In this document: positions 6,159-57,490 of the stretch, one piece after another
How the letters are laid out: every line of letters starts with the position of its first letter
How positions within the stretch are numbered: position 1 is the stretch's first letter
NCBI GenBank assembly: GCA_963718375.1
Contig: CAVQZD010000005.1
Location: 186,614-250,613, forward strand
DNA from: an uncultured Actinomycetes bacterium
Lineage (GTDB): Bacteria; Actinomycetota; Thermoleophilia; RBG-16-64-13
Length of the DNA stretch: 64,000 nt
Direction of reading: 5' to 3'
The notes under the pieces: model-generated
Told to the model about the DNA's origin: nothing
Seen by the model: the letters and a program-made list of their open reading frames with translations, nothing else
Databases searched by the model: none
Made by a program: the position numbers and the translations under genes

Positions 6159-6165
6159 CCGGAGC

Positions 6166-8845: not shown

Positions 8846-8974
8846 TGACGAGTCGCGCTGCCCTGTCCGTTGACACACCTCTTCAGGTGACCTATTCTCG
8901 ACCATCGGGTTGGGGCGCCGCCCTGACCGGTCTCTGCTGTCTGCCTATCACTCTGTCTGTGGGAAGGTGGTCTG

Positions 8975-10419
8975 TTGTCCGCAAATAGGCGTGACGTACT
9001 CATCTTGGTCGTGGTGGCGATCCTTCTGGGGGTCATGGCGTACTTTGCCTTCCCTTTGTCGAACACCAACCTCGGTCTCGACCTGCAGGGTGGACTGGCA
9101 GTCACCCTGGAGGTGTCAGAGAAGGATAAGGCGACGAACGATGCGTCCGCATTGTCGGACAAGCTGGACCAGACCGTCGCCGTCATCCAGACTCGGGTCG
9201 AACGCGCTTGGTGTGTCGGAGCCAGAGATCCGAAGGCAGGGCGAGTATCAGATCAGCATACAGTTGCCGGGCATCGAGGACCCTGAGCGGGCGCTGGAGA
9301 TAATCGGCAAGACCGCCATCCTGCAGTTCTATCCTGTGGCGGACTTCGGAGAGAGCTACGCAAGCGCGGACGAAGCTCTAGCCTCCGTGAACGCGGACAG
9401 CGTTGATGAACTACCTGAGGGGACCGAACTCATCTACTGGCCGGCCGACGAGAACGCGACAGGCGCGGCCGACCGGTACTACATAGTCGAGACAGAGGCG
9501 CCGGTAGACGGCTCCATGTTGAAAGACGCCGATTTCGACAGCCAGGGACCCAACGGTACCTATCGGGTGACGATGGAGTTCAACGACGAGGGTTCACAGG
9601 GCTTTGCGGATACTGACGAAGGAATTGGCGGACATCGGGGTGGCGACCGGCGTGACGCAGCAGCTCGCGATAGTGCTGGATGGCACGGTCCAGTCTGCGC
9701 CGACGGTCAACGAGGAGATCGCGGGTGGGAGCGCAGAGATCACCGGCACGTTCACACTTCAGGAGGCAAAGGAACTGGCTCTGGTGCTACAGACCGGCGC
9801 GCTGCCTCTGACCATGGTGCCGGTAGCCCAGTACTCGATAGGCGCGACCCTGGGCAGCAACGCTCTGCGGCAGGCCCTGATCGCGGGAGCCGTGGGATTG
9901 CTCCTGATCATGGTGTTCATGATCGCCTACTACAGACTGCTGGGCCTAGTGGCCTCCGTGGCACTGATCATCTATGGGGTGTTGTTCTTGGGGCTCCTGA
10001 ACGCGATCGGTGCGACTATGACCTTGCCAGGCATAGCAGGCATCATCTTGACTTTTGGCATGGCGGTGGATGCCAACGTGCTGATCTTTGCGCGGATGCG
10101 AGACGAGGTGGCGGCGGGTAAGACCGTCGGGGCGGCTACAAGCGCCGGCTTCAAGAAGGCCTTCAGGGCGGTCGCCGACTGCAACATCACCACCATGCTG
10201 ACGGCGGTTGTACTGTTTGCCACTGCTACGGGTGGTGTCAAAGGCTTTGCCCTGACACTCCTCATAGGGGTTGCACTCTCGTTTCTTACGGCCGTGGCCG
10301 TGACGAGGTCGATGCTCAATCTTCTTATCCAGTGGCGTCCATTCAGGAACCTGAAGCTGCTCGGCCTGCACGTGCCAAAGAACAAGATGGCCCAGACTGA
10401 CGAGGGAGGTCGGTCATGA
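8975..10419 (+). CDS. secD: Protein translocase subunit SecD, disrupted by two single-base frameshifts near 9197-9206 and 9604-9612
   Basis: The three track ORFs 8975..9286 (frame 2), 8910..10121 (frame 3) and 9604..10419 (frame 1) together give a collinear SecD: N-terminal TM, LGLDLQGGLAVTLEV, IQTRV[N]ALGVSEPEIRRQGEYQISIQLPGIEDPERA, then ILTKELADIGVATGVTQQLAIVLDG and the C-terminal 6-TM bundle. Confidence 0.88.
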
Positions 10420-13692: not shown

Positions 13693-16223
13693 GTGCAGAT
13701 GATGGACGCCTCAGCCCTCAGTGACGAAACGACCTGGTCGGTCAACCCGTGTTCTTGGCGGGATGCCGCCAAGATCGCGGCTGAGCTGGAGATACCGCAG
13801 GTTGTCGGCATGGTCCTAGCTGGGCGAGGGCTTTGCGACGCGTCGTCGGCTCGCCGATTCCTCGAATGCAGCGCCCCTCTACCTGACCCGTTTCTCTTCG
13901 AGGACATGGCGGGGGCCGTGGCCGCCGTGCTGAGCGCCGTTGACGAACGACGCAAGATAGTGGTGCATGGTGACTACGATGCCGATGGAGTCACCGCGAC
14001 GGCTTTGATGGTCGGTGGTCTGCGAGCCCTGGGGGCCGAAGTCGACTGGTACCTACCCACTCGCTTCAAGGAGGGTTACGGTCTGTCGGCTGCCGCTGTA
14101 GATGCCATAGCCGACGGTGGTGCCAGCCTGCTGATCACAGTCGACTGTGGGGTCAACTATCCGGCAGAGGTGGCTCTGGCGCGGCAGCGCGGACTAGAAG
14201 TAGTGGTGGTAGATCATCACCAGCCAGGGCCGACCCTACCGGAATGTCACGTGATTCATCACAGCCGCGGTCAATACCCTGACGGTGAACTCTGCGGCGT
14301 CGGCCTAGCCCTGAAGGTACTGCACGCGATACACATGAGGCGGTTCGGCGCTGAGCCCGGCACTTTGCCTGCAGACCTCGCGTCGTCACTCGACCTTGTG
14401 GCAATCGGCACGGTCGCTGATCTCTCGGCTCTGCGCGGCGAGAACAGGTACTACGTGAGGGAAGGGCTGAGGCTTCTGAATCTTGGGCAGCGCGTGGGTC
14501 TGAGGGCCCTCTCTGAGGTGTCGAGCTGCGCGGGTTCCATTGACTCTGGCGCTATCGCCTTCAGACTCGCACCCAGGCTGAACGCGGCGGGGCGTCTTGC
14601 CGACGCCACGCCACCTCTGCGACTTCTCCTCACTCAAGATGAACGGAGAAGCGAGACGTCTGGCTGCGGAGCTGCACGACATGAACGGCCAGCGACAAGA
14701 CCTGGAGAGGACGATGTTCGAGGCGGCCCAGCGCCAGGTCAGCGCTCTGACGACACTGCCGACAGTGTTGGTTCTAGCGGGTACCGACTGGCACGAGGGT
14801 GTGGTCGGCATAGTCGCATCCCGGATGGTGGATCTCTATCAACGTCCCACAATAATGCTGTCCCTGCACGACGGGGTGGCGAAGGGCTCGGGCCGAAGCA
14901 TACCGGCCTATGACCTGCTACGATGGCATCGACGCGAATGGGGCTCTCCTAACGGTGTATGGAGGTCATGCGCAGGCAGCCGGTCTAACGATGAAGGCCG
15001 AGTGTCTGGAGGACTTCCGCATGGGGATGGAGCAACACGCATCGTCTGTGCTGTCAGCGGCAGACCTTGTGCCGCGCTACCGAGCGGACGCCGTCATCAC
15101 CAGCGAAGAGCTGGGCGATGACACTGCGCGGGCTCTAGCCATGCTTGAGCCATTCGGTAGCGGCAATCCGCGCCCTCGCTTGATGGTCGTCGACGCAGTG
15201 TTGCAGAAAGCTGAGCCGACCAGGAACGGCCTACATCTCAGATGCACGGCGCAGGTCGGCGGGGTGCGTATTCCCGCGATAGGCTTTGGGATGGGGCACA
15301 GGTCAAACCAGATGGATGGCAGGCATGTATGCGTCGCCGGGGCGCAACTCAAGGCGGACGAATGGCGGGGGGCATTGCGGCCGCAGCTCATCCTCGAGCG
15401 CGTGGCCGCGTTGGGGCCGACCGTTGACGAGGGGCGCAAAGAGGTGTGTGTAGAGACCGGCATGGCGCCCGCGGCGGGCGCATGGGGCCAGAAGGAGTCT
15501 GGTTCTGCCGCCTTGCAGTGGCCGCGATCCGCGCGCGATCTTCGCGACCGACCCGGGCGATTGACCGCCGTGGCGCAAGTGCTCGCCAGTGGGGAATCGG
15601 TGGTGATGTTCACCATCTCGAGCGCAAGGACTCTAGAACTCTTGAGCGAGCGGTTGCCTATGCACGTCTTGGCCGGGGCGCAGCCGGTGTGCGTCAGGCC
15701 GGGACCCGACACGGTAGATGAAGAGGCTCTCCAAACAGCGAGGCTGACTCTAGTCGAGTGGGGGGCCGCTGCGGATGTCATTGGGAGGCTTGAGGATCGA
15801 GCGCACGTCGTGGTCTTCGACCCGCCTTATCGCAGAGACCAGGCGCTTGCCGTCTCGACTCTGGGTGTGGGGGGGGCCACACTGCATCTTCTGTACGGAG
15901 AGGCGGAGCGCAGAGAGTCCGCGGCGCTATTGCGATACTTGGTGCACCCACGTTTTGCGATGGTCTGCATGTACAACGCGATGCGTTCGGGGGCTGAGAG
16001 GGGAGACGGTGGCATAGTGCAAGGGGCCCGGACACTTGCCTGGGCACAGGCCCGGGTGGAGCTGGGGCCGGGAGAGTGGTGCAGGTCGCAGACCATACTC
16101 AGTGAACTCGGTTTGGCCACTTCGTCAGGAGGAAAGGCTAAACTGGATGCGCGGGCGATCCCTGCATATCAGGCTGCAGAAGCTGACTACGAGGAGTGTG
16201 TTAGGACTTGCCTGACCCTCTAA
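13693..16223 (+). CDS. recJ: Single-stranded-DNA-specific exonuclease RecJ with a ~270-aa C-terminal extension. Two frameshifts (about 14638-14650 and 14908-14922).
   Basis: DHH domain (VVHGDYDADGVTATAL, ITVDCG, VVVVDHHQ) in ORF 13693..14913. DHHA1 (EARRLAAELHDMNGQRQDLE...LVLAGTDWHEGVVGIVASR...GSGRSIPAYDLL) is in frame 2. The remainder (CYDGIDANGALLTVYGGHAQAAG...) is in frame 0, running to 16223 with no stop. Confidence 0.85.
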
Positions 16224-22220: not shown

Positions 22221-22413
22221 GGCGCTATTGGCGGGTCCAATGGGTTGTGCTACCCTCACGCTGCTCGACCTTGTGCGTGATCTGGCTCAAACTTGAGCCA
22301 ACACTCATCGCTTGGGAGGCTTGTTCAGCTGGACGGCGAATACCTTCCGGAGACAGCCACCCACCTGCTTAGGCAGGTTCAAGCGCCTGTCAGACACGGC
22401 AAGGTGGAGCACT

Positions 22414-22962
22414 ATGAACGAAGGGGAACATGTGATGCGACGAGTCTACGGCATGTCATTGGCAGCGCTGTGCATCGTCCTCGTATCCGGCCTAGGGGTC
22501 GGGTGCTTCTGGTCCAGCGACGAACCGACGACGGTTGCTTCGGAGACGACGGTCATCTCGTCTGAGAGTTCGAGCACCACCGAAGCGGGCACCACCGCAA
22601 CCAGCGCGGCGGTCACCACGACCGTTCCCTCCAACTTGGTAGACGGTCTTCCTCGGGAATACGTCGAGTCGCTCGGCGAGCGGCCCATGGTGATCCTGTT
22701 CTACGTTCCGGGTGGAGTTGACGATGAGAGGGTGCTGACGTCTGTGCGGGAACTGCAAAGCACGTACAGCAACTATACGTTTCTCATCTATCAGTATGAT
22801 CTGCCGGCGCAATATGGTGTGCTACCCACCGAACTGGGTGGCGTACAGTACCCGCCTCAGGTCATCCTTGTAGATAGGCAAGGTGCTATTCAGAGGGTAT
22901 GGACTGGGTATGTCGACAAAGCTACCCTGAACCAGACACTGCAGGATCTTGGGCGGTATTGA
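22414..22962 (+). CDS. Secreted/lipoprotein-like protein with a Ser/Thr-rich linker and a thioredoxin-fold-like domain that has no CxxC
   Basis: N-terminal signal peptide MRRVYGMSLAALCIVLVSGLGVGC, then a TTVASETTVISSESSSTTEAGTTATSAAVTTT linker and an ~110-aa domain (MVILFYVPGG...ILVDRQGAIQRVWTGYV). The start is uncertain (22312, 22414 or 22435). Confidence 0.45.
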   Translation: MNEGEHVMRRVYGMSLAALCIVLVSGLGVGCFWSSDEPTTVASETTVISSESSSTTEAGTTATSAAVTTTVPSNLVDGLPREYVESLGERPMVILFYVPGGVDDERVLTSVRELQSTYSNYTFLIYQYDLPAQYGVLPTELGGVQYPPQVILVDRQGAIQRVWTGYVDKATLNQTLQDLGRY

Positions 22963-24120: not shown

Positions 24121-24501
24121 ATGGAGTGGGATGCCGACACCATCTGGAAGATCTCGTTGGGCATCTTCTTCGTGCTCTGCGGCGCTGGGGGCGCTTACGC
24201 GCTCTTCAGATTGGGGGACACGCTCAAACAAATGAGCAGCATACTGAGTAGCGTGGATTCCGAGATGTTGCCCCTGCTGACGCGGGTGGAGACCACCCTT
24301 GATGAGGTCAACGGTGAACTGAGCAAGATCGACAAGATCACTGGCTCGATCGCCGAGATCCTGAAGGTGGTAGAAAAGACGACGACAGCCCTGCACAATC
24401 TGTTCGCCGTGCCGCTTCGCAAGCTGGGTGAGCTAGCCGGAGGGGTTGGGGTGAGCGCGAAGTCTTTTGTCGCATCCAAGAACAAAGGGGAGACCTTATG
24501 A
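24121..24501 (+). CDS. DUF948-family membrane protein (stress-associated)
   Basis: 126 aa with an N-terminal TM helix (ISLGIFFVLCGAGGAYALF) followed by a coiled coil, matching the DUF948 architecture. Paired with a YtxH-like gene downstream. Confidence 0.55.
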   Translation: MEWDADTIWKISLGIFFVLCGAGGAYALFRLGDTLKQMSSILSSVDSEMLPLLTRVETTLDEVNGELSKIDKITGSIAEILKVVEKTTTALHNLFAVPLRKLGELAGGVGVSAKSFVASKNKGETL

Positions 24502-24758
24502 GCGCGTTGAAGTCGCTGGGTATTCTTGCCTCCGGCGTGGTGCTGGGCGCCGCAATAGTGATCGCCTATCGCGTCGCTCAGGACAAGGATAAGCCTTTGC
24601 AGGAGGCTTTTGCCGAGGTACCGGCCGAACTGGAGCGCCTCTACACTGGGCTGAAGGCCAAAGGTGCCGAGGCCTACGACAGGGCGCGGCCTGCGCGTGA
24701 GGAAGCACAACCGCAAGTCGCCGACGGGGGCGAGGAGTCCGGCGCAGCCCAGCAATAG
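24498..24758 (+). CDS. YtxH-like small membrane protein
   Basis: 86 aa with an N-terminal TM helix (LGILASGVVLGAAIVIAY) plus a charged helical tail. Start overlaps the upstream stop (ATGA). Confidence 0.45.
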   Translation: MSALKSLGILASGVVLGAAIVIAYRVAQDKDKPLQEAFAEVPAELERLYTGLKAKGAEAYDRARPAREEAQPQVADGGEESGAAQQ

Positions 24759-24771
24759 GAGGCTGCGGGAA

Positions 24772-25176
24772 TTGGCCAACGCTCCACAATCGGTTGTCCT
24801 GACTGTCCCTCGGGGGCCGTTCGCTCTTTCCGCCATGCGCTTGGTCGTGGGCTGGGTGGCGTCGTGTAACGACCTGCCGCTCGATAGGATCGATGATGTC
24901 AACCTCGCTCTGGAGACGCTCATATCGGGCGAGGTGGAACAAGGCGCAGCCCTGGAACTCAGGCTGTCCGCGTGGGATGGAGTCCTGGAGGTCTCACTAC
25001 AGGGTCTGTGCAGTTCAGGGCTCAGGGCAAATCTGCAGGAGAGTGAATCCTTCTCTCCGTCGTTCGAATGGCCGCTCGACATCCGTCTGTTTCTCGGCGC
25101 TCTGCTGGACGACTACAAGATGGTGGACCCTGACGCAGAGTCGTTCGGCGTATTGATGCAGAAGCGGATCCGATAG
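24772..25176 (+). CDS. Putative anti-sigma factor (RsbW/UsfX-position protein) upstream of the SigB/F-type sigma
   Basis: 134 aa from TTG 24772, 9 nt after AGGAGG. The longer 24664 ORF overlaps the YtxH gene in another frame. The stop is immediately followed by the sigma ATG (TAGATG). No clear HATPase N-box, so assignment rests on synteny. Confidence 0.4.
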   Translation: MANAPQSVVLTVPRGPFALSAMRLVVGWVASCNDLPLDRIDDVNLALETLISGEVEQGAALELRLSAWDGVLEVSLQGLCSSGLRANLQESESFSPSFEWPLDIRLFLGALLDDYKMVDPDAESFGVLMQKRIR

Positions 25177-26031
25177 ATGGGTCCGGTCGATGGTCGTGAG
25201 AAGCAGTCAGGCGGGGATTCTGTGCGCGGCGGCACCAAGAGGCGCTTGGAGGGCGTGCCAGAGCACGAGCTCATGGCGCGACACCGGCTGGAGAATGATG
25301 CGGCTGCCCGCGAAGAACTGATCACGAGATACTTGCCGTTGGTGCGCAGCCTGGCGCGTCGCTTCATCTCGCGTGGGCAGCCGCTTGAGGACCTGATACA
25401 GGTGGGGTCGATCGGTCTGATCAAGGCCATCGACCGTTTTGATATGGATAGGGGCGTGGAGCTGTCCACGTATGCGACCCCCACCATCCTTGGCGAGATC
25501 AAGCGCTATTTCAGGGACAAGGGCTGGGCTGTCAAGGTGCCCAGGGCTCTGCAGGACCTGAACGTCAGACTCAACAGGATCATCGAACACATGACTGTCG
25601 ACCTGCAGCGCTCCCCGACGATTGCTGAACTTGCGGCGGGAGCCCAAGTGACAGAAGAAGAGGTCGTGGAGGCTCTCGAGAGCGGTAGAGCCTACAGCTC
25701 TGTGTCCATCTTCTCCGGCGGTTCCGGTGAAGACGAAGAATCGCTTGAGTTGCTAGACTGCTTGGGCCAAGAGGAGAAGGCCTATGAGCTTGTAGAGCAA
25801 AGGCGTTTCTTGGCACCGGCTATGGAGCGTCTCGATCCGCGAGAGCGCCTCATTCTGCACCTACGCTTCTTTGAGGGTATGACACAGACGCAGGTGGCGG
25901 CACGAATCGGCATTTCGCAGATGCACGTGTCCAGACTCATCCGCAAGTCGATAGACAACTTGCGGGACACGATGATGCAGCAACAGGCCACTTCGGGGGC
26001 ACAGGGGAGAGAGGGTAGGAGTCCTAAGTGA
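25177..26031 (+). CDS. RNA polymerase sigma factor, SigB/SigF/SigG (group 3) family
   Basis: Region 2 (YLPLVRSLARRF...DLIQVGSIGLIKAIDRFD...STYATPTILGEIKRYFRD), region 3, and region 4 (LILHLRFFEGMTQTQVAARIGISQMHVSRLIRKS). 284 aa. Confidence 0.88.
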   Translation: MGPVDGREKQSGGDSVRGGTKRRLEGVPEHELMARHRLENDAAAREELITRYLPLVRSLARRFISRGQPLEDLIQVGSIGLIKAIDRFDMDRGVELSTYATPTILGEIKRYFRDKGWAVKVPRALQDLNVRLNRIIEHMTVDLQRSPTIAELAAGAQVTEEEVVEALESGRAYSSVSIFSGGSGEDEESLELLDCLGQEEKAYELVEQRRFLAPAMERLDPRERLILHLRFFEGMTQTQVAARIGISQMHVSRLIRKSIDNLRDTMMQQQATSGAQGREGRSPK

Positions 26032-30306: not shown

Positions 30307-31170
30307 ATGTGGTTGCCCAATCGAAGAAATGCCGACGCTGCTGTTCAGGTCGTCTGGCTCTTCGGACATCCGATCGGTCACTCACTGTCGCCTACGATGC
30401 AGAACGCGGCCTTCCTGCATGCGGGATTGGCGCTCCGGTATGTCGCGCGGGACGTTGGGCCTGGGGTACTGGCGGAAGCGATAGAGGCCTTGCATTCTCA
30501 GTGCGCCAAGGGCGCCAACGTGACTGTGCCTCACAAACAGGCTGTTCTGTCGATGTTGGATGAGATTGAACAGCAAGCGGCGACAATCGGGGCGGTAAAC
30601 ACTATCGTTCATGAGAACGGACGGCTGAAAGGCCACAATACGGACGTAGGTGGATTTCGGAGGTCGCTTGAAACCGTGCTGCCCGGGGGTGCGAACGGTC
30701 GAAAGATCCTGGTGCTGGGGGCAGGGGGAGCTGCTCGTGCGGTTCTGGCCGCACTGCAGCAGGACGAAGCATCTTTGATACTGGTCGCCAACAGGACCAT
30801 GGAACATGCGCAGGGGCTTTGTCAAGTCGCTGGCGGGTGGGGCCCGGCCAAATGTGCTGCGCTGGGCCTCGACGAGGTGGAGACGGCGGTCGCAGACTGC
30901 ACGGTGATAGTGAACGCCACGTCGCTGGGAATGGTAGGGTCGGTCAAGGAGTTGCCCATCGATGTCGATATTCTGAAGAGCGGCCAGGTGCTGGTGGACC
31001 TTGTCTACGGTGCCGACGATACAGCGCTCGTCAAGGCGGCGCGGGGGGTAGGCTTGGTTGCCATTGACGGCAGGGAGATGCTGGTGCAGCAAGCCGCGCT
31101 GTCCTTCAAATTGTGGACGGGCCTCGAAGCGCCCGTCGATGTTATGCGAGGTAGCCTAATTGGCGGTTAA
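30307..31170 (+). CDS. aroE: Shikimate dehydrogenase
   Basis: LFGHPIGHSLSPTMQNAAF...NVTVPHKQAV...GAVNT...GHNTDVGGF...ILVLGAGGAARAV. 287 aa. Confidence 0.9.
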   Translation: MWLPNRRNADAAVQVVWLFGHPIGHSLSPTMQNAAFLHAGLALRYVARDVGPGVLAEAIEALHSQCAKGANVTVPHKQAVLSMLDEIEQQAATIGAVNTIVHENGRLKGHNTDVGGFRRSLETVLPGGANGRKILVLGAGGAARAVLAALQQDEASLILVANRTMEHAQGLCQVAGGWGPAKCAALGLDEVETAVADCTVIVNATSLGMVGSVKELPIDVDILKSGQVLVDLVYGADDTALVKAARGVGLVAIDGREMLVQQAALSFKLWTGLEAPVDVMRGSLIGG

Positions 31171-32914
31171 GGGCGACACTTCAGACGCACCTGTAGCAGG
31201 GCAGGAGAGCCTCCAGAGAAGGCTTTCCGGCAAGCGTACGGGCGAAGTCCTCGTAGAGATGGGCCTGCTGACCTTGGAGCAGGTGGATCAGGCAATCGCT
31301 GAGCAGCGGGTATCGCACCAGCGCATCGGCGATATCGCCCTCGAGAAGGGCTGGGTCACCAAGTCCACCCTGATGGAAGCACTTGGTCTGCGTCTGGGCG
31401 TGAAATACCTTGACTTGGCTTCCACTCGCATCGACCCGATCACTGCTGACCTCATATCAGAGCGCGATGCTCGTCGCTACGCCGCTGTGCCGGTGAGTTT
31501 CGTTGACGACCACACGCTGCTTGTGGCCATGGCCGATCCGTCGAACATAGTGGCGGTCGACGACCTACGCATACTTACAGGGTTCGACATAGAGCCGGCT
31601 ATCGCGACCAACGAAGACATCACGGCGATGCTCGCGAAACTGAGGTCGGCTCAGGACGACATGTCTGAGGGCACCGACCTGACGACGACCACTGACGACG
31701 ACGAGGCCAATGCGGTAGAACTTCGGGACATCAGAGAGCAGGTGGATGCCGCCCCGGTGGTCAAGCTGGTGAATGGTGTCCTCGCAAGGGCGGCGGACGA
31801 GGGAGCGTCTGATATCCACTTCGAGCCACAAGCGAAGGATCTGATGGTCCGCTTTCGACACGACGGGGTGCTGCATGAGATCATGACTATCCCCAGGCGT
31901 CTGCAGCCCGGCGTGCTATCTCGTCTCAAGATCATGGCGGACCTGGACATCGCTGAACGCAGGGTCCCGCAGGACGGCCGCATAGGCCTGGTCGTTGGTG
32001 GTCGACCGATCGACATGCGCGTGGCCTCCTTGCCCACCGTATATGGGGAGAAGATCGTCATTCGCCTGCTGGATCGAGGCAACGTGATGCTGCATCTGGA
32101 GCAGCTTGGGTTTTCTGATGTCGCCTTGAGCCGCTACACCAAGTCTTTCACCAAGCCCTATGGAGCCATATTGGTCACGGGGCCTACCGGTTCGGGCAAA
32201 TCGACGACCCTGTACGGAACGCTCAACATCCTCAATACCGCAGACAAGAACATCATCACGGTCGAGGACCCGGTCGAGTATCGTCTACAGGGCATCAACC
32301 AAGTGCAGATCAACCAGAAAGCAGGCTTGACCTTCGCCTCGGGCCTCCGTTCTATCCTACGTTGCGATCCAGACATCATCATGGTCGGTGAGATCCGCGA
32401 CCGGGAAACCGCGCAGATTGCTGTAGAATCCGCCCTGACTGGCCATTTGGTGCTATCGACCCTGCACACCAACGACGCCCCGGGCGCACTCTCGCGCCTC
32501 ACTGAGATGGGAGTGGAGCCCTTCTTGACGGCTTCTGCGGTCGACTGCGTCATAGCGCAGCGCCTAGTGCGGAAACTCTGCGAATATTGCCGGGAGGCAT
32601 ACCCTGTAACCAAAGAGATGCTCGAGCGACTTGGGTTCCCGCGGGGAGCGGTGGATGACTGGAAGGACACTCAGTTGTACAAGCCGACTGGATGTACTCG
32701 CTGCAACGGCACGGGCTACAAGGGCCGGCTGGGCATCTACGAGATAATGCCCGTCACTGAAGCTCTCGAGAGGCTTATAGTAGAACGCAAGAGCGCCGAT
32801 GAATTGATGAGAGTGGCTGTTGCGGAGGGCATGGTATCGCTGAGGCACGACGGGTTGCAGCGGGTGTTGGAGGGTGTGACCTCGGTCGAGGAGATATCGC
32901 GGGTCATCGTATGA
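31160..32914 (+). CDS. pilB: Type IV pilus assembly ATPase PilB (GspE family) with an N-terminal GSPII_E_N domain
   Basis: GSPII_E_N domain (GLLTLEQVDQAIAEQ..., LDLASTRIDPITADLIS), Walker A ILVTGPTGSGKSTTLY, and a tetracysteine motif CEYC...CTRCNGTG. 584 aa. Confidence 0.9.
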   Translation: MAVKGDTSDAPVAGQESLQRRLSGKRTGEVLVEMGLLTLEQVDQAIAEQRVSHQRIGDIALEKGWVTKSTLMEALGLRLGVKYLDLASTRIDPITADLISERDARRYAAVPVSFVDDHTLLVAMADPSNIVAVDDLRILTGFDIEPAIATNEDITAMLAKLRSAQDDMSEGTDLTTTTDDDEANAVELRDIREQVDAAPVVKLVNGVLARAADEGASDIHFEPQAKDLMVRFRHDGVLHEIMTIPRRLQPGVLSRLKIMADLDIAERRVPQDGRIGLVVGGRPIDMRVASLPTVYGEKIVIRLLDRGNVMLHLEQLGFSDVALSRYTKSFTKPYGAILVTGPTGSGKSTTLYGTLNILNTADKNIITVEDPVEYRLQGINQVQINQKAGLTFASGLRSILRCDPDIIMVGEIRDRETAQIAVESALTGHLVLSTLHTNDAPGALSRLTEMGVEPFLTASAVDCVIAQRLVRKLCEYCREAYPVTKEMLERLGFPRGAVDDWKDTQLYKPTGCTRCNGTGYKGRLGIYEIMPVTEALERLIVERKSADELMRVAVAEGMVSLRHDGLQRVLEGVTSVEEISRVIV

Positions 32915-32956: not shown

Positions 32957-34021
32957 ATGGACATCACTGAGATTCTGAAGCAGGTAGTGGCCGTTGGAGC
33001 GTCCGATTTGCACCTATCGGTCGGTGTGCCGCCCGTTGTGCGCGTCGACGGACACTTGGAGGCCTTGGACTACCCGCCCCTCGAGCCGATCGGCATTCGG
33101 GAGATGGTGTATAGCATCCTCTCGCAGGATCAAAGACAGAAGCTTGAGACAGACTGGGAGCTTGACCTGGCGTATTCGCTATTCGGCGTGGCTCGCTTCC
33201 GTGTGAACGCCTTCTTCCAACGAGGGGCGCTGGCCGCAGCATTCAGGATGGTCCCCATAGAGATCAGATCCATTGATGAGTTGGGACTCCCCAAAGTCCT
33301 TCACTCTTTCTGTCACAAACCACGCGGTTTCGTGTTGGTCACAGGCCCGACGGGGTCCGGCAAGTCGACCACCCTCGCTGCGGTGATCGATGAGATCAAT
33401 CAGACACGCTCCAACCACATAGTCACCATCGAAGACCCCATCGAGTTCTTGCACATGCACAAGCGTTGCGTCGTCAACCAACGGGAGTTAGGCACTGACA
33501 CGAAGTCGTTTCCGGCGGCACTGCGGGCAGCTCTCCGTCAGGATCCCGACGTAGTGCTGATCGGCGAGATGAGGGACATCGAGACCATGCAGATAGCCCT
33601 CACTGCGGCGGAGACGGGCCATCTGGTCTTCGCCACGCTGCACACGCAGGATTGTCCGCAATCTATCGATCGCATCATCGACGTGTTCCCACCGCATCAG
33701 CAGGAGCAGATCCGAGTACAGATCGCCGCGACTCTCGAAGGGATTGTGTCCCAGCAGTTGCTGCCAAAAGTGGGCAGCAAAGGTCGCGTGGCGGCTTGTG
33801 AGGTCCTCATTCCGACGCCGGCCACGCGCAACCTGATACGCGAGGGCAAGACCCATCAGCTCTACACCGTGATGCAGACTGGTAGCCAGCAGGGCATGCA
33901 GACCATGAACGCAGCGTTAGCCGAGCATGTGAAGCGTGGCCGCATATCCAAGGATAACGCGATGCGCAGGACTGTCGCCCCCGAAGAGCTGGAGCGGCTT
34001 CTGCTGGTAGGAGCCGCGTGA
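32957..34021 (+). CDS. pilT: Twitching motility retraction ATPase PilT
   Basis: VAVGASDLHLSVGVPPVVRVDG...FVLVTGPTGSGKSTTLAAVIDEIN...ITIEDPIEF...AALRQDPDVVLIGEMRD. 354 aa. Confidence 0.9.
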   Translation: MDITEILKQVVAVGASDLHLSVGVPPVVRVDGHLEALDYPPLEPIGIREMVYSILSQDQRQKLETDWELDLAYSLFGVARFRVNAFFQRGALAAAFRMVPIEIRSIDELGLPKVLHSFCHKPRGFVLVTGPTGSGKSTTLAAVIDEINQTRSNHIVTIEDPIEFLHMHKRCVVNQRELGTDTKSFPAALRAALRQDPDVVLIGEMRDIETMQIALTAAETGHLVFATLHTQDCPQSIDRIIDVFPPHQQEQIRVQIAATLEGIVSQQLLPKVGSKGRVAACEVLIPTPATRNLIREGKTHQLYTVMQTGSQQGMQTMNAALAEHVKRGRISKDNAMRRTVAPEELERLLLVGAA

Positions 34022-34148: not shown

Positions 34149-35363
34149 GTGGCGACATACGTATACACGGCGCGCAAGGACCGGGGTGGAATGTTGACCG
34201 GCGAGGCGTCGGGTGATTCCAAGCAAGCTGTGGTCGCTGATCTCAAGCGCAAGGGAATGACAGTCCTGAAGCTTGAGGAGAAGCGCGGGGCGCTGAGCAT
34301 CCAGTCGCTTCTGGAGAGCTCAACAAAGATCAAGACACGCGACAAGGCTGTGTTCGCGCGCCAGTTCGCCACTATGATCCAGTCGGGTCTAGCTGTGCTC
34401 CGAGCTCTGTACGTGCTCGAAGAACAAACGCAGAATCCGAGATTCAAGAAGATCATTGCCTCGCTGAGGGGTGATGTCGAGGCCGGTATGTCGCTTTCAG
34501 ACGCTATGGAGCGCTATCCAGTCGCCTTCGACAAGCTATACGTGTCCATGGTGCGAGCAGGCGAAGTGGGTGGTTCGTTGGACCAGTCACTCAACCGTCT
34601 CGCGACACAGCTTGAAAAGGATGACAGCATCCGCCGCACCGTAAAGTCCGCCATGGCCTATCCGGTGATGATAGCGTCGTTCGCCATATTGGTGGGTGTC
34701 GGCATGTTGCTTTTCATCATACCGATCTTCGCGAAGATGTATGACGACCTCGGAGGTCAGCTTCCCCTTCTGACGCGCGTTATGATGGGCCTGAGCAACT
34801 TCATGAAGAGTTACTGGTTCATCATCATCCCGATGCTGATTGGGCTCGTCTGGGGCTTCCGCAAATGGAAGGCCAGCGATCAGGGCCGGCGCACGTGGGA
34901 TCGCATCAAACTGAGGCTTCCTATGAAGCTCGGCCCGGTCGTCCAGAAGATCGCGGTATCTCGCTTTAGCCGTACCATGGCGACGCTTGTGAGTTCTGGT
35001 GTGCCCATACTTCAAGCGATCGACATCACCGGCAAGACTTCGGGCAACTCGGTCATCGAAGATGCCATGGTGGACGTCAAGGAGAGTGTGCGAAGTGGTG
35101 AATCGATTGCCAAACCGCTGAGCCGCGTATCTGTGTTTCCCCCGATGGTGACCCAGATGATCTCCATCGGTGAAGAGACCGGCGCCTTGGACAGCATGCT
35201 CAACAAAGTGGCCGACTTCTATGAGGACGAGGTCGACACCACGATCAAATCGCTGACCTCGATCCTAGAGCCCATCATGATGATCTTCGTCGGCGGCATG
35301 GTAGGTCTGATCGTCATCTCCATGTACTTGCCGATGTTCAGCATGATGAACCTCGTCCAGTAG
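34149..35363 (+). CDS. pilC: Type IV pilus platform protein PilC (GspF family)
   Basis: Two T2SSF repeats (FARQFATMIQSGLAVLRAL... and FSRTMATLVSSGVPILQAI...) with three TM helices. 404 aa; GTG start after GGTAAGAGGAG. Confidence 0.9.
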   Translation: MATYVYTARKDRGGMLTGEASGDSKQAVVADLKRKGMTVLKLEEKRGALSIQSLLESSTKIKTRDKAVFARQFATMIQSGLAVLRALYVLEEQTQNPRFKKIIASLRGDVEAGMSLSDAMERYPVAFDKLYVSMVRAGEVGGSLDQSLNRLATQLEKDDSIRRTVKSAMAYPVMIASFAILVGVGMLLFIIPIFAKMYDDLGGQLPLLTRVMMGLSNFMKSYWFIIIPMLIGLVWGFRKWKASDQGRRTWDRIKLRLPMKLGPVVQKIAVSRFSRTMATLVSSGVPILQAIDITGKTSGNSVIEDAMVDVKESVRSGESIAKPLSRVSVFPPMVTQMISIGEETGALDSMLNKVADFYEDEVDTTIKSLTSILEPIMMIFVGGMVGLIVISMYLPMFSMMNLVQ

Positions 35364-35501
35364 GAAGCCGGCTGGCAGAACTGCAGTTGGCCTATGGAGT
35401 GCGCTCGCGAAACCGCTGAACGCTGGATGGAAACCGCTAGTCTATAGTGGCACACCCAATGCACGATAATGTGCATTATGTCTACTCGATAACAGGGCGG
35501 T

Positions 35502-37343: not shown

Positions 37344-37628
37344 CTATTCCTCTGGCGTGCCTGCGTTACACCCCTTGGTCGCCAATATGTCTGCTAGGCC
37401 TGCCACATCCCCGTCCACCACTAAGCTCTTGGGCGCGGCGCTGCTGTCGCGAAGCCTTCTCACCAACTCAGCCCTCACGATGTCCAACTCGCCCTGCAGT
37501 AGACGACGCTGTTTGGATACCGCTGCTTCTTGGTCAGCAAGCGATCTAGCGAGGTCCTTCAGTTCGTCATCCGAGTAAGCCTGGATGTTGACTAGACGTT
37601 CGAAAGAAGACTCGTCCACAGCGTTCAC
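37344..37628 (-). CDS. Small conserved hypothetical coiled-coil protein (94 aa)
   Basis: Codon usage consistent with its neighbours. GTG start at 37628 lies about 6 nt downstream of a TATAGT box, suggesting a leaderless mRNA. Charged helical sequence (LADQEAAVSKQRRLLQGELDIVRAELVRRL). Confidence 0.4.
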   Translation of the reverse strand: MNAVDESSFERLVNIQAYSDDELKDLARSLADQEAAVSKQRRLLQGELDIVRAELVRRLRDSSAAPKSLVVDGDVAGLADILATKGCNAGTPEE

Positions 37629-37730: not shown

Positions 37731-38114
37731 TCAGTCTTCAGCTGCCAGGATCGCGTCGTATTCCTCTACGCTCAAGAGCTCGTCGGCCTCGCTTGAATCT
37801 CTCATCTTGATCTTGATGAGCCAGCCATCTTCGTACGGGCTCTGGTTGAGGGTCTCGGGCGCGTCAATGATGTCCTCGTTGATCTCTATGACGGAACCAC
37901 TCATGGGTGCGTACACGTCAGACACGGCCTTCACCGACTCCACCTCTGCGTATGGCGTCCCAACTGTGACGTCCGCGCCTACCTCTGGGAGTTCGATGAA
38001 GACGATATCACCGAGGGTCTTCTGGGCATAGTCGGTGATGCCGAACACGGCGTTATCACCGTCTAGGCGTACCCAGTCGTGCTCCCTGTGGTACTTGAGG
38101 TTCTTAGGGTTCAC
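37731..38114 (-). CDS. gcvH: Glycine cleavage system H protein
   Basis: YHREHDWVRLDGDNAVFGITDYAQKTLGDIVFIELPEVG...AEVESVKAVSDVYAPMSGSV with the lipoyl-lysine motif. 127 aa; GTG start with AAGGAG RBS. Confidence 0.93.
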   Translation of the reverse strand: MNPKNLKYHREHDWVRLDGDNAVFGITDYAQKTLGDIVFIELPEVGADVTVGTPYAEVESVKAVSDVYAPMSGSVIEINEDIIDAPETLNQSPYEDGWLIKIKMRDSSEADELLSVEEYDAILAAED

Positions 38115-38253
38115 CTGCGCTCCTTTCTTGCCATACCCGGCTGCGCGTCATGATAGCACAGCAGTATTCACAGCCACGGTCGCTAAAGTCCGCGCCTTCG
38201 GTCCCCGACTTGTATACTGTTGGTGGCAACGACGAAAGCTGAAGGAGGGCACA

Positions 38254-38757
38254 GTGGCCCGACGCAAGGGACTCGTCATCAGTGACGAGCAGATGAAGGT
38301 TATTGATGGCGTGCTCTCGAAGCTGCAGCATGTGACCGGTTCGCATTTCGTCGCTCTCATCTCCACAAGCGGTCAGCCCATTACGGTATCTCCGGCCGAC
38401 GCTCAATCAGACACGCTGTCGCTGGCCGCGCTCGCTGCGGGTTCTTTCGCGGCCACACGACAATTGGCTGAGGTCCTCAAAGAGCGCGAGTTCACACTCC
38501 TCTTCCACGAGGGCAAGGAGTCGAACCTGCATGTGATCCAAGTCACGGACCAGATCCTCATGCTGCTGACTTTTGGACACGAGACTCAAGTGGGATTGGT
38601 CCGTCTCTACACCACTCGCGCGCTTGCGGTGTTGAAGCCCATCTTTGAGCGTTCCGAGGACAGTGACGGGGAGGCCCGGCTTATCGACCAGGAGTACTCT
38701 CTTGAGGCCGGGACTGCGCTCGATGACCTGTTCAACGAACAGGACTCGGAACAGTAA
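38254..38757 (+). CDS. mglB: Roadblock/LC7-domain protein MglB (GTPase-activating protein for MglA)
   Basis: From GTG 38254 (GAAGGAGGG RBS): KGLVISDEQMKVIDGVLSKLQHVTGSHFVALISTSGQPIT...LSLAALAAGSFAATRQLAEVL...LVRLYTTRALAVLKPIFE, collinear with Myxococcus MglB. An acidic C-terminal tail follows. Confidence 0.8.
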   Translation: MARRKGLVISDEQMKVIDGVLSKLQHVTGSHFVALISTSGQPITVSPADAQSDTLSLAALAAGSFAATRQLAEVLKEREFTLLFHEGKESNLHVIQVTDQILMLLTFGHETQVGLVRLYTTRALAVLKPIFERSEDSDGEARLIDQEYSLEAGTALDDLFNEQDSEQ

Positions 38758-38770
38758 CGGGGGAGCTACT

Positions 38771-39355
38771 GTGGCACTCATCAACCTAGCGGCCAGGGAG
38801 ATCAACTACAAGATCGTCTACTATGGCTGCGGTCTCTGCGGGAAGACTACGAACATCCAGTACATCCATCGACGGGTCAACCCTGCCGCTCGGGGTCGCC
38901 TAGTCAGCATCGCTACGGAAGAAGAGCGCACCCTGTACTTCGACTTCCTTCCGCTCTCACTGGGGACGGTGAAGGGCCTTCGTACCAGGTTCCATCTGTA
39001 CACCGTTCCAGGTCAGTCGTTCTACAATGCATCGCGAAAGCTGGTGTTGCAGGGCGTCGACGGTATCGTCTTCGTCGCGGACAGCCAGGTATCGAGGCTC
39101 GATGAGAACGTGGACAGCTATCTGAACCTGTGGGACAACCTGCGATCGCAGAATGAGGACCTCTCGAGCCTGGGGATGGTCCTGCAGATGAACAAGCGTG
39201 ATCTAGGCAACATATTCAGCGTGAGCGATCTAACAGAACTCCTCAACCACACGGGATCTCCTGTGTTGGAGGCGTGTGCGCTCACAGGGGTGGGTGTGTT
39301 TGAGACGCTGAAGACCGTCTGCAAGCAAGTGATAGCCAAGAGTTCTCGCTCCTGA
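38771..39355 (+). CDS. mglA: Ras-like small GTPase MglA (motility/polarity regulator)
   Basis: From GTG 38771: [24 protein letters not shown]...[53 protein letters not shown]...NKRDL...GVGVFETLK aligns essentially residue-for-residue with M. xanthus MglA ([19 protein letters not shown]...[33 protein letters not shown]). Confidence 0.9.
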   Translation: [194 protein letters not shown]

Positions 39356-41512: not shown

Positions 41513-42357
41513 GCTTGCGTCTCCTCAAGGGCTTGCACCACTGCATCTATCTGGTCGGATGGCGTTGACGCGCCGGCCGTCACCCCCACTACGTTCGCTC
41601 CGTTGAACCAAGCGGCTTGGAGTTCGTCCGCTGACTCCACATGGTGAGTGCGCGGTTGGCGCTGCTTACAGAGCTCGGCGAGTCTGCGAGTATTGCCCGA
41701 CTCCCTCCCACCCACGACGACGACCACATCGACGTCAGAGGCCATTTCCAGGGCCGCACTCTGTCGCACCTCGGTGGCATTGCAGATGGTGTTGTGCACC
41801 AGCAACTGCCTGGCCACCGGGGCCAGGGTGGCTACCAGCTCGGCCAGTCGCTCCTTGGACTGCGTCGTCTGTACCACTACACCCAGCTTGGAGCTCGGCA
41901 GACTCTCCGGCAGGTCGGCGGCAGACTCAACGACCAACGACTTCTCGCCCGCGTATGACTTCAGGGCCAGGACCTCCGGATGGTCCCGATCACCGAGGAT
42001 GATGACGTAGTAGCCATCCTGGGAGAGGCGAGCGGCCTTATCCTGGGCCGAGGTGACGAAAGGACAAGTCGCGTCGACTAGACTGACGGACGAGAGCGCG
42101 AGCTCCTCTCGCACTGACTTCGGCACCCCGTGCGAGCGAAGTATCACCGTTCCCTCAGGCGCTTGCGCCGGCTCGGACACTACCCCGACGCCCTTGTCGT
42201 GCAGGTCTGACACCACGCTGGGGTTGTGGATGAGCGGTCCCAGGGTGTTGACGGGCTTCTGCGCCCCAGCCGCAGCATCCAGTGTGAGTTGGAGTGCCCT
42301 TTCCACTCCGGGGCAGAAGCCGGCGCTGTCAGATACGCGAACGATCAGTGGACTCAT
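41509..42357 (-). CDS. ispH: 4-hydroxy-3-methylbut-2-enyl diphosphate reductase
   Basis: MSPLIVRVSDSAGFCPGVERAL...GPLIHNPSV...HGV...ATCPFVT...TICNAT conserved-Cys and His pattern. The ATG at 42357 shares one base with the stop of the upstream cmk::plsC ORF. Confidence 0.88.
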   Translation of the reverse strand: MSPLIVRVSDSAGFCPGVERALQLTLDAAAGAQKPVNTLGPLIHNPSVVSDLHDKGVGVVSEPAQAPEGTVILRSHGVPKSVREELALSSVSLVDATCPFVTSAQDKAARLSQDGYYVIILGDRDHPEVLALKSYAGEKSLVVESAADLPESLPSSKLGVVVQTTQSKERLAELVATLAPVARQLLVHNTICNATEVRQSAALEMASDVDVVVVVGGRESGNTRRLAELCKQRQPRTHHVESADELQAAWFNGANVVGVTAGASTPSDQIDAVVQALEETQA

Positions 42358-43682
42358 CACCTTTCTACCGGAGTCGCCAAGAGCGTCTCTAGCGCTGCCT
42401 GCACTCGTTCCGTGACTATGCGCGCTTTGTCGGCGCGCGACACCTCGGGCCCCGGCATCACGATGGGCGGCCCAAAGAGTAAGTCCACTTTCGGGAAGTG
42501 TGGGTAGCCATGCTTGAAGCACAGATCGGTGCCGCGCAGCACGGCCGGCACAGTGACCACACCCTCCCTCAGGGAGAAGAGGCTGATCCCGGGCCTCAGT
42601 TCTCCAAGGCCCGGCCCCTTATGGCAGTGCCCTTCGGGGAAGAGCCCGAGGACTCCTTCCGCGTCCAGGATCTCGATAGCCTTCTTGATCGCAGCGCGGT
42701 CCACCTCTCCCCTACTCACCGGAAAGGTGCCGAATCTCTCCATCGCCCAGGCCAATGGCTTGAACTTCCAGAGTTCCACTTTGGCCATGTAGTGGATCTG
42801 CCGAGGGGCGTTGATGCCAAGAAAGAAAGGGTCGGTCATGGCCTTGTGATTGCAGGCCACGATGACCGGTCCGGCTAAGGGGAAGTTCTCCACCCCGACC
42901 ACCCGCATACGGTAGAAGAACCGCCAGGTCGGGCCCAGTACCGCGTAGATCATGCGGTAGAGGAAGGTGTCCAGGGGACCCTTCTGCAGGTGCGACAGTC
43001 TCCATCGGGGATATCTCTTCTGTTGGGACTGGCGCGCGATGCCGCACACGGTCTCAATGACCTCTTCGATGGCCATAGAGGTCGTATCCACTTCAATGGC
43101 GTCCTCCGCCTTGCGGAGTGGCGCGGTCTCTCTTCCCGAGTCCAGAGCATCCCTGGTCATAATCTCCTTGGCCAAGTCTTCGGCGGACGTGTGAACGCCC
43201 TGGGCTTCGAGCTGCGCCTGGCGCCTGCGTGCTCTCTCCTCAACGCTCGCCGTCAGGAATATCTTGACCTCAGCGTCAGGGACTACCACGGTGCCTAGGT
43301 CTCTACCTTCAAGCACCACGTTGCCCCGATGCGCCTCATCACGCTGTCTGACTGTCAGCACGTCTCTCACTGACGGCTCCGCGGAGACCGCCGACACATT
43401 CTTGGAGACGACCGGACCTCGGATCTCCAGACTGATCTCTCTGTCACCCACGAATGCCTTGGTCAGATCATCATCCTGAACTTGGAACCGTAGATCAGCC
43501 GCGTCAGCAAGCGAGGCGACCTCCGCAAGGCGATCGGGCACGAGCCCAGCCTCGAGCGCCAGTAGGGTCACGGCTCGGTACATCGCACCCGTATCCAGGT
43601 AGCGCATACCCAGCCTCTTGGCCACTTCTCTCGCGATGGTGCTCTTGCCCGACCCGGCTGGGCCGTCTATGGCGATGATCAT
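42357..43682 (-). CDS. cmk: Apparent in-frame fusion of cytidylate kinase (N-terminal ~222 aa) and 1-acyl-sn-glycerol-3-phosphate acyltransferase PlsC-like domain (C-terminal ~200 aa)
   Basis: N-terminus MIIAIDGPAGSGKSTIAREVAKRLGMRYLDTGAMYRAV...EGRDLGTVV...KIFLTASVEERARRR (Cmk). C-terminus LAGPVIVACNHKAMTDPFFLG...GTFPVSRG...GVLGLFPEGHCH has acyltransferase motifs I-III. 441 aa in one frame with no internal stop. Confidence 0.75.
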   Translation of the reverse strand: MIIAIDGPAGSGKSTIAREVAKRLGMRYLDTGAMYRAVTLLALEAGLVPDRLAEVASLADAADLRFQVQDDDLTKAFVGDREISLEIRGPVVSKNVSAVSAEPSVRDVLTVRQRDEAHRGNVVLEGRDLGTVVVPDAEVKIFLTASVEERARRRQAQLEAQGVHTSAEDLAKEIMTRDALDSGRETAPLRKAEDAIEVDTTSMAIEEVIETVCGIARQSQQKRYPRWRLSHLQKGPLDTFLYRMIYAVLGPTWRFFYRMRVVGVENFPLAGPVIVACNHKAMTDPFFLGINAPRQIHYMAKVELWKFKPLAWAMERFGTFPVSRGEVDRAAIKKAIEILDAEGVLGLFPEGHCHKGPGLGELRPGISLFSLREGVVTVPAVLRGTDLCFKHGYPHFPKVDLLFGPPIVMPGPEVSRADKARIVTERVQAALETLLATPVER

Positions 43683-56007: not shown

Positions 56008-56916
56008 CTACTCCTCCACTCGGGCTCGCGGATGAGCTTCCTGGTATACCTTCTGCAGGTGTGAGGAACTGACGTGGGTATAGATCTGGGTGGTAGAGAG
56101 ATCGGCGTGGCCCAACATCTCCTGTACCGCTCGGAGGTCAGCGCCCCCCTCAAGCAGGTGTGTCGCGAAGGAATGCCGCAGGGTGTGTGCCGACACATCG
56201 TCCGAGAGCCCAGCCTCGCGGGCGTAGCGCTTCACGATCAGGTGAAGCCCCTGCCTCGACAGCCGGCGTCCGTGCTCGTTCAGGAAGAGTTCTGGTGACT
56301 TTAGGCGCCCAGCGCCGCCAAGTAGACGGCGGCCACGCTCGTTGTAGGCCTGTAATGCCTCGACCGCCATCCGTCCCAGGGGTACCACCCTCTCCTTATC
56401 GCCCTTGCCTATTGTGCGCACGAAGCCCACCTCAAGGTCTACATCCTGGATGCGCAGAGCGAGCAACTCGGAGGCTCGTAGTCCGGCGCCGTACAGTGTC
56501 TCCAGTAGAGCTCTGTCCCGCAGCCCACGGGGGTCCGACTTGGGAAGAGCCAGCATCCTTTCCACTTCGGCGATACTGAGCACCCTCGGCAACGTTGCCT
56601 CCAAGCGCACCCCGGCAAGCGACTTCGTCGGGTCCGCGGCAATGAGTCCCCCCAGGACGGCGTACCTGTAGAACGATCTGATCGCGGCAGCCTTTCTTGC
56701 CCTAGTCGACGGACGCCACTCCTCGGCTCCGAGGAAAGCACGCACGTCCTCACTTGACGCCGCAAGCAGGCGCACATCTCTCGACTCCAGGAACTCACCG
56801 AACTGAGTCAGATCTCTTCCATACGCAGCCGTCGTGTTGTCAGACAGCCCCTTCTCGAGCCGAAGGGCGCGCAGGTGGGCGTCTATCAGACTACGATTCT
56901 CAGGCTTCAGTCCCAT
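56008..56916 (-). CDS. xerD: Tyrosine recombinase XerD (chromosome dimer resolution)
   Basis: N-terminal SAM-like domain ([22 protein letters not shown]). Catalytic R...HxxR...Y residues ([52 protein letters not shown]). ATG at 56916; the longer ORF starts at 56979. Confidence 0.88.
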   Translation of the reverse strand: [302 protein letters not shown]

Positions 56917-57490
56917 AGCCTGGCTCCTCCTGAAGGAGGCGTAGCGCTGCAAGTGTCTTGGCGTCGGGAATCTCTGCAAGCCGATGGCGAAGCTCCATCA
57001 GCGGGATGCGCTCCACTGCGAGTTCTTCGTCGATGTCGGGGTCAGCGTCTTGCTGCGTCAGACCCCACGCCAGGAACACATGGAGCTCTTCGTTCAGAAA
57101 GCCAGGTGATGAGAAGAAGGAACCTAGCGGCCTCCAGTCGTCGGCGATCAAACCGACCTCTTCGCGCAGCTCACGTTTCGCGGCTGCCAACGGCTCCTCC
57201 CCGGGCTCGAGCGTGCCGGCGGGGAGTTCGATCAATGACTGACCTACCGCATGGCGATATTGCCGCACGAAGTACACATGCCTGTCATCATCGAGCGCTA
57301 TGATCACCACTGCGCCGGGATGATCCACGACTTCGCGGACGGCCTTGGTCCCATCGGACAGCACGATCTCATCCACCCTCAGCGAGATGATCCGGCCCTC
57401 ATATACCTGCCGAGAGCTCAACACTTCTGGAAGTGTGCCCGAGTTGCCGGCCGAGTCAGGATCAGTTCCGTGCGCGGGCGTCATGCTCAT
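56900..57490 (-). CDS. NUDIX hydrolase (ADP-ribose pyrophosphatase-like)
   Basis: Nudix box GTLEPGEEPLAAAKRELREEVG. 196 aa; sits between pyrG and xerD as the Rv1700 homolog does in mycobacteria. Confidence 0.85.
   Translation of the reverse strand: MSMTPAHGTDPDSAGNSGTLPEVLSSRQVYEGRIISLRVDEIVLSDGTKAVREVVDHPGAVVIIALDDDRHVYFVRQYRHAVGQSLIELPAGTLEPGEEPLAAAKRELREEVGLIADDWRPLGSFFSSPGFLNEELHVFLAWGLTQQDADPDIDEELAVERIPLMELRHRLAEIPDAKTLAALRLLQEEPGYGTEA

Follow-up and report, generated by a model that had tools for sequence, protein, structure and literature searches.

The closest described counterparts of the system treated here are the MglA/MglB pairs of Myxococcus xanthus, in which the Ras-like GTPase MglA stimulates pilus formation (PMC7519303), and of Thermus thermophilus, in which, according to a paper that cites Salzer 2015 for it, mglA/mglB deletion mutants localise their pili differently at the cell pole (PMC12024867) and for which type IV pilus localisation is the only known output. 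The 2014 survey of prokaryotic Ras-like GTPases by Wuichet and Sogaard-Andersen reported Group-1 MglA from many phyla and listed none for Actinobacteria, which had only conservon-type (Group 2) and Group-5 proteins (PMC4316618). The present study concerns an mglB-mglA operon (mglBA) on the plus strand of a 64-kb stretch of DNA (the window; contig CAVQZD010000005.1 of assembly GCA_963718375.1, positions 186,614 to 250,613) from an uncultured actinobacterium of the Thermoleophilia. We regard the pair as a functional, vertically inherited Group-1 MglA/MglB operon with the choice of pole for type IVa pili as its most likely output, a reading to which we would assign a probability of about 0.6, and 0.55–0.6 for the pilus-polarity output taken by itself, which is argued from analogy. 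A well-known system is thereby recorded from a further phylum; the system itself is not of a new kind, and the accepted view of how MglAB works is unchanged by this operon. A full-text search found no literature linking MglA to Thermoleophilia or related genera, and public records already label some of these proteins “gliding-motility protein MglA” or “Roadblock/LC7/MglB family”.

The operon and its two products

The interval 38254–39355 is occupied exactly by two plus-strand open reading frames (ORFs): mglB at 38254–38757 (GTG start, 167 amino acids), encoding a Roadblock/LC7 protein that is the predicted GTPase-activating partner of MglA, and mglA at 38771–39355 (GTG start, 194 amino acids), encoding a single-domain Ras-like GTPase of the Group-1 MglA type. 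Each start is preceded by a Shine-Dalgarno sequence, GAAGGAGG lying 7 nucleotides (nt) 5′ of mglB and GGGGGAG 6 nt 5′ of mglA, and 13 nt separate the mglB stop from the mglA start. For comparison, one genome per GTDB species was scanned, which gave 197 stretches with close relatives, and the best 80 of these (80–99% MglA identity) were analyzed. The two genes are coupled in 78 of the 80 loci, at a spacing of 1–19 nt in most and of 34 nt in one, and this short spacing across loci is consistent with a single transcript. Both ORFs are intact in all related loci. Longer frames beginning at 38035 and 38645, which were listed mechanically, overlap gcvH or mglB and are contradicted by the N-termini conserved in relatives.

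MglA matches the Pfam Arf/Ras family, and when compared with all PDB sequences it was matched best by MglA of M. xanthus (E=6.5e-71) and T. thermophilus (8e-64), ungapped over residues 1–190, with Arf proteins following at about 1e-5. Its identity is 57.4% to the Myxococcus protein and 56.8% to the Thermus protein, while these two are 63% identical to each other. Residue numbering is the same in all three, and the catalytic set of the M. xanthus protein (PDB 6izw, 6h5b, 5ymx), consisting of G21, T26/27, R53, T78VPGQ82 and NKRD, is shared. The G1 P-loop pattern GxxxxGK[ST] is satisfied by G19-C-G-L-C-G-K25-T26-T27; the intrinsic arginine finger R53-T54 sits in an E-E-R53-T54 segment that aligns ungapped to both described proteins and is invariant in the 80 loci; G3 is T78-V-P-G-Q82, the Group-1 form that replaces DxxGQ; and G4 is N141-K-R-D144, of the NKxD type and not the Group-2 NxFD type. 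The catalytic residues as a whole are invariant across the related loci. Also present are L64, V67 (I67 in M. xanthus), K181 and K185, and in Myxococcus the C-terminal helix of MglB fits into a pocket made up of L64/I67 with K181/K185 of MglA (PMC6785124; PMC4316618). Two clade signatures distinguish this MglA from its counterparts in Myxococcus and Thermus, namely Cys20 in the P-loop (GCGLCGKTT), where both others have Pro, and PGQS in place of PGQV. The original prediction had placed an MglB-MglA pair exactly here, with a Roadblock/LC7 MglB preceding an MglA nearly motif-identical to that of Myxococcus, and this is what was found; none of the residues critical for GTPase activity, whose substitution it had named as a reason for doubt, is replaced.

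MglB matches Pfam Robl_LC7 (PF03259; 1.8e-10, 40.8 bits against a cutoff of 23), and its best PDB sequence matches by phmmer were MglB of M. xanthus (2.3e-16) and of Thermus (1e-10). The protein consists of a Roadblock core, a poorly conserved acidic linker and a C-terminal motif, A-[I/L/M]-D-D-L-F, which is conserved in 78 loci and reads A-L-D-D-L-F here (residues ~155–160); the C-terminal peptide by itself had no meaningful match in the PDB. An AlphaFold2 model built from a 50-sequence alignment had a predicted local distance difference test score (pLDDT) of 65 and a predicted template-modelling score (pTM) of 0.62, while a single-sequence run, with pLDDT 36, was unusable. The model has an alpha-beta-beta-alpha-beta-beta-beta-alpha topology with a separate helix at residues 146–159. 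When it was compared with the PDB by Foldseek, the top 30 matches were all MglB chains (6hjm, 6izw, 6h5b, 1j3w, 3t12), the best being 6hjm and 6izw (E 1e-10, template-modelling score 0.82), and these ranked above archaeal Roadblock proteins, the Streptomyces Roadblock-domain structure 3kye (5e-6) and MglC 7ct3 (4e-5). The D/E-rich C-terminal helix of MglB is reported to co-evolve with the lysines of MglA alpha5 (PMC6785124), and at the level of sequence the predicted acidic C-terminal helix of the present MglB and K181/K185 of its MglA match the pair expected from that work.

The likeness to M. xanthus therefore extends from the mglB-then-mglA order and a single-domain MglA of about 195 residues to the alpha5 and L64/67 pocket, the acidic MglB helix and the MglB fold. 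The differences are the actinobacterial host, the clade residues of MglA, an MglB that is only about 31% identical, and the wider gene set: no MglC, Frz or gliding (Agl-Glt) genes were seen in the window, nor the RomR/RomX and SgmX genes considered further below. In this respect the locus is more like Thermus (PDB 3t12, 1j3w), which likewise makes do with a minimal module of two genes, with neither Frz nor RomR, and has an MglA of 57% identity.

In an actinobacterial host, a Roadblock protein next to a small GTPase could also be a fragment of a Streptomyces-type conservon (CvnA-D; MfpB/MfpD), in which these two protein types are also paired, as cvnB and cvnD with a Group-2 MglA (PMC4316618). 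The findings refute this explanation, to which we attach next to no probability. The scanned main ORFs of the 64 kb include neither a cvnA histidine kinase nor a cvnC (DUF742) gene, the operon here comprises two genes, and MglA, at 57% identity to Myxococcus MglA, has the Group-1 arginine finger with TVPGQ and NKRD, not NxFD. The MglB model in turn is far closer to MglB (E 1e-10, about 31% identity) than to Streptomyces 3kye (E 5e-6, 18%). The original prediction had itself named a conservon with cvnA/cvnC nearby as the finding that would overturn it. By every sequence-level criterion tested the pair classes as a member of the Group-1 MglA/MglB family, and we hold its identity as MglA and MglB to be practically certain.

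Divergent from mglB across a spacer of 139 nt lies gcvH (37731–38114, minus strand), as had been predicted for a plus-strand pair inside a minus-strand block. In an alignment of this spacer from 27 loci only two islands were conserved and the rest was variable. One is CTTGTATACT (38209–38218, plus strand), which contains a -10-like promoter core (TATACT, 38213–38218) and lies about 36 nt 5′ of the mglB start; almost all of the 27 closer loci that were compared have it at this same distance, and within the window it is unique. The other, GCTGTGCTATCATGAC (38143–38160, reading on the minus strand), resembles an extended -10-type core for gcvH and is conserved 5′ of that gene in most related loci. 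The two may be back-to-back -10-type promoter cores. In simple consensus scans neither a sigma-70 two-hexamer promoter for mglB nor a terminator following mglA was detected; the two terminator-like sites lie inside coding sequences. No inverted repeats were present in intergenic regions. A WhiG/FliA-type promoter for mglB was also considered, as TAAA-N16-CCCGA at 38184–38208 overlaps the CTTGTATACT island and fits the published search rule; it was rejected, the match being present in only two of 79 loci (L002 and L003) and the window containing three matches where 1.4 would be expected by chance.

Age and conservation of the locus

All 80 relatives are metagenome-assembled genomes of Actinomycetota, with labels including Thermoleophilia, Gaiellales, Actinomycetes, RBG_16_64_13 and UBA2241. 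The best locus (L001) has an MglA 99% identical to that of the window, with neighbours only 56–93% identical, so the window represents a different species. Twenty-one window proteins were mapped onto the related loci. Median identity was 82% for MglA, 64% for MglB and 73–77% for PilB, PilT and PilC, and 42–51% for the products of ftsR, the FHA gene, rsiG, plsY and aroE, so that MglA is the most constrained protein of the region. Strong purifying selection acts on mglBA. The order apt-ftsR-FHA-rsiG occurs upstream of mglB-mglA in about 70 of the 80 loci, rsiG itself in 71, and gcvH in 38.

A pair of genes opposite in orientation to the surrounding block, with a tRNA-Pro(GGG) gene 38 nt 3′ of mglA, might suggest a recently acquired island inserted beside the tRNA gene. 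We consider this very improbable. GC content, GC at third codon positions (0.71 and 0.74) and codon-usage distance are ordinary, within the range of the neighbouring genes; no integrase or repeats marking such an island were found; and the pair has the same position in 80 related species, in which identity of the flanking proteins has fallen to 40–70%. In most relatives 3–7 kb of minus-strand housekeeping genes (an NTP-transferase/PMM fusion, VanW, two DUF881, pgsA, gpsA) separate mglA from tRNA-Pro, so the adjacency seen here reflects a local deletion and not an integration scar. These genes, convergent with mglBA, were considered as additional operon members 3′ of mglA and were placed outside the module. 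The operon is old and vertically inherited within this lineage, and recent horizontal acquisition, for which the original prediction had proposed a comparison of GC and codon usage with the flanks, is not supported.

Loss of function would be another explanation, since partner genes (RomR/RomX, PATAN, pilin) are missing from the window and a DUF4388 gene has been lost at the site in this lineage. That the operon is a decaying relic is nevertheless even less probable than that it is an island, given that MglA exceeds every other protein of the region in conservation (80–99%), that the ORFs are intact in all loci and that the catalytic residues are invariant.

The DUF4388/PATAN gene itself deserves mention. 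In more than 40 sister-lineage loci a minus-strand gene of this type lies between rsiG (or gcvH) and mglB, divergent from mglB and either in place of gcvH or beside it, as at L045 (8814–9368, minus strand; Pfam DUF4388 6.4e-18) and L062 (9023–9355, minus strand), where a 110-residue stand-alone domain is encoded between gcvH and mglB. It is absent from this site in the window and its nearest relatives, where there are only 139 nt, and from the rest of the 64 kb. The sister lineages resemble the PATAN/DUF4388-linked MglA/MglB loci described before (Makarova 2006; Wuichet 2014), from which the window itself differs. PATAN genes have been noted previously near mglA/mglB loci (PMC4316618), and PATAN response regulators bind the PilB motor in the cyanobacterium Synechocystis (bioRxiv 10.1101/2021.06.11.447907).

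At greater distances, many of the MglA 50%-identity cluster representatives (P0121–P0269) are multidomain fusions of 300–890 residues in total, with an N-terminal MglA domain 52–62% identical and long C-terminal extensions. A three-sequence MglA profile search returned almost only Myxococcota, and the cluster look-up gave one taxon name, Gemmatimonadaceae. What we have, then, is a long-established, strongly conserved canonical mglBA in a large, uncultured actinobacterial lineage of soil and sediment (at least 197 related species-level genomes) that keeps the PilB/PilT/PilC motor. The combination predicts polarised twitching or attachment in organisms without cultures, and the minimal polarity module of this actinobacterial lineage, in which neither Frz nor RomR was seen, provides a case for comparison.

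Pilus motor genes and the output of the switch

The extension ATPase PilB (31160–32914), the retraction ATPase PilT (32957–34021) and the platform protein PilC (34149–35363) are all encoded in the window, on the plus strand, and the three genes end 2.9 kb upstream of mglB, in good agreement with the original prediction of about 3 kb. PilB matches Pfam T2SSE and MshEN and scored 653 bits with the type_IV_pilB model, whose cutoff is 676; PilT scored 498 bits with NCBIfam pilT_fam (PilT/PilU family) against a cutoff of 319; and PilC matches Pfam T2SSF. At its N-terminus PilB has an MshEN-type cyclic di-GMP (c-di-GMP) motif (NCBIfam NF053729, 52.9 bits against a cutoff of 38, residues 28–75). The start of pilB overlaps the end of aroE, which suggests co-transcription of aroE and pilB.

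By analogy with the Myxococcus and Thermus systems (PMC3199381, PMC2910265, PMC6785124, PMC7519303, PMC12024867), the GTP-bound form of MglA would serve as the mark of one cell pole. A dimer of MglB would bind MglA-GTP, with its acidic C-terminal helix docking on the lysine-bearing alpha5 of MglA, would position MglA's own Arg53 and Gln82, and would so stimulate GTP hydrolysis. Excluded from the opposite pole, MglA-GTP would be confined to one pole and would promote pilus extension there, the output being the choice of the pole at which the PilB/PilT/PilC type IVa motor works, whether for twitching or for surface attachment. We infer from this analogy the GTPase-activating activity of MglB, the polar localisation and the pilus output, and likewise a functional link between pilBTC and MglA.

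Several observations weigh against a pilus polarity switch. The scanned ORFs of the 64-kb window include no pilin, prepilin peptidase or PilM/N/O gene, and a search for the prepilin motif found nothing in the window and, among the 80 loci, only L065, a sister-lineage contig on which a type IV major-pilin-like gene (MKAAAARRQQGFTLIEILIVV..., ~1915–2530, plus strand) lies directly 5′ of apt. RomR/RomX, SgmX-like and response-regulator genes are likewise absent from the 64 kb. The motor genes adjoin the mglBA block in about 30 of the 80 loci, and roughly half of the loci keep mglBA without pilBTC within 10 kb. The conserved linkage of mglBA is with apt-ftsR-FHA-rsiG, and in the sister lineages with the DUF4388/PATAN gene, more than with pilus genes. 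No cultured organism with this module was identified. Finally, along with phylum and genomic context, MglB differs from the Thermus system in scoring 66.5 bits with the Thermus-type NCBIfam equivalog NF052242, below the cutoff of 200, although this is a narrow model and the miss shows divergence from the Thermus type and is no argument against membership of the family. All factual elements of the original prediction were borne out, and the polarity-regulated type IV pili that it proposed are likely by analogy. The motor genes are nearby; the pilin, pilD, pilM/N/O and RomR-like genes that it suggested looking for were not in the window, and the motor genes are not constant neighbours.

A further consideration is the position of the replication terminus. 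The genes pilC and apt converge on a gap of 139 nt that contains a dif-like XerC/D site, AATGCACGATAATGTGCATTATGTCTAC (35459–35486, core 35464–35481), which coincides exactly with the peak of cumulative GC skew and with the flip in gene orientation. In 24 related loci this junction has a conserved copy of the core, to which shuffled sequences gave no match. It follows that the terminus of replication lies within the window and that mglBA, at about 2.8 kb from dif, is transcribed against the direction of replication. Because pilBTC and mglBA flank the dif-like site on opposite sides, their adjacency could be historical, and this also counts against a pilus output. Elsewhere in the window there is an xerD-like integrase gene at 56008–56979 (minus strand).

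It is possible, with appreciably lower probability, that this is a genuine MglAB switch for some other polar process, such as polar growth, the identity of the division site or pole, or gliding or adhesion by an unrecognised system. MglA also drives gliding in Myxococcus and prey invasion in Bdellovibrio (PMC4316618). The constant neighbours of the operon are apt, ftsR, the OdhI/GarA-like FHA gene and rsiG, not pilBTC, and in relatives mglBA lies within the actinobacterial pgsA-DUF881-gcvH-FHA-ftsR cell-envelope and division cluster; the loci without nearby pilBTC and the intervening terminus fit such a process as well. Members of the Actinomycetota elongate at their poles. The same cluster, however, is conserved across Actinobacteria without mglBA, as in the Mycobacterium order Rv1822-Rv1828, so the linkage may merely reflect the site of insertion, and mglBA lies on the opposite strand with a promoter-like element of its own. 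Type IV pili are the target in both free-living MglAB systems that have been studied by experiment, and the PATAN gene is linked to mglBA in sister lineages. On balance we prefer the choice of pilus pole as the output.

A possible input to pilus pole choice is c-di-GMP. Between the FHA gene and gcvH, 0.6 kb from mglB, the minus strand encodes an RsiG-like anti-sigma factor of 94 residues (37344–37628; Pfam RsiG 2.9e-15), whose single c-di-GMP motif reads as intact in the translation (E34-x3-S38-x2-R41-x3-Q45-x3-D49); at the fourth motif position 67 of 78 relatives have H instead of Q. In Rubrobacter an RsiG switch controls type IV pilus genes (PMC8325347). Alike in the two cases is a single-motif RsiG with an intact c-di-GMP motif, which here is accompanied by the MshEN motif on PilB. 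The present locus differs from the Rubrobacter switch in having no conserved WhiG-type promoter before mglB. The partner sigma factor of RsiG, WhiG, is not encoded in the window, where the sigma factor at 25177–26031 belongs to the SigB/F/G family. One may speculate that in the common ancestor of the uncultured Thermoleophilia-like lineages a circuit of MglA/MglB and a PATAN adaptor, coupled to c-di-GMP sensing through single-motif RsiG and MshEN-PilB, chose the type IV pilus pole, or was co-opted for pole identity and polar growth, and that Actinomycetota would in either case have their first Group-1 MglA polarity system in it; we think this full scenario rather unlikely, somewhat more so than a switch for another polar process.

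Neighbouring genes and other features of the window

On the 5′ side the plus strand has the order alaS, mltG, aroE, pilB, pilT, pilC. The minus-strand block that follows the convergent gap comprises apt, ftsR, the FHA gene, the rsiG-like gene and gcvH, after which come the plus-strand mglB and mglA, and beyond mglA the minus strand continues with tRNA-Pro(GGG), plsY, der, ispH, cmk-plsC, aroA, tyrA, aroF, hisC and onward. Both flanks of mglBA are thus of typical actinobacterial gene order, as the original prediction had it, and FtsR scored above the cutoff of its actinobacterial NCBIfam equivalog (210 bits against 150).

Two ORFs were examined as candidates for RomR and rejected for lack of any resemblance to it, one at 24195–25082 (minus strand), which looks spurious, and one at 22312–22962, which encodes a thioredoxin-like membrane protein. 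The cmk-plsC ORF (42357–43682, minus strand, 441 amino acids) is a fusion of cytidylate kinase (Cmk) with a PlsC-like 1-acylglycerol-3-phosphate acyltransferase; as listed it overlaps ispH by about 165 nt, and its start codon may be misplaced. Each of four genes, queA (5785–7261), tgt (7248–8388), secD (8910–10419) and recJ (13693–16223), is broken into a pair of ORFs, overlapping or adjacent, whose products match consecutive portions of a single Pfam model, which indicates apparent frameshifts, for example near a run of four G at about 7796. These frameshifts are probably assembly indels rather than marks of pseudogenes.

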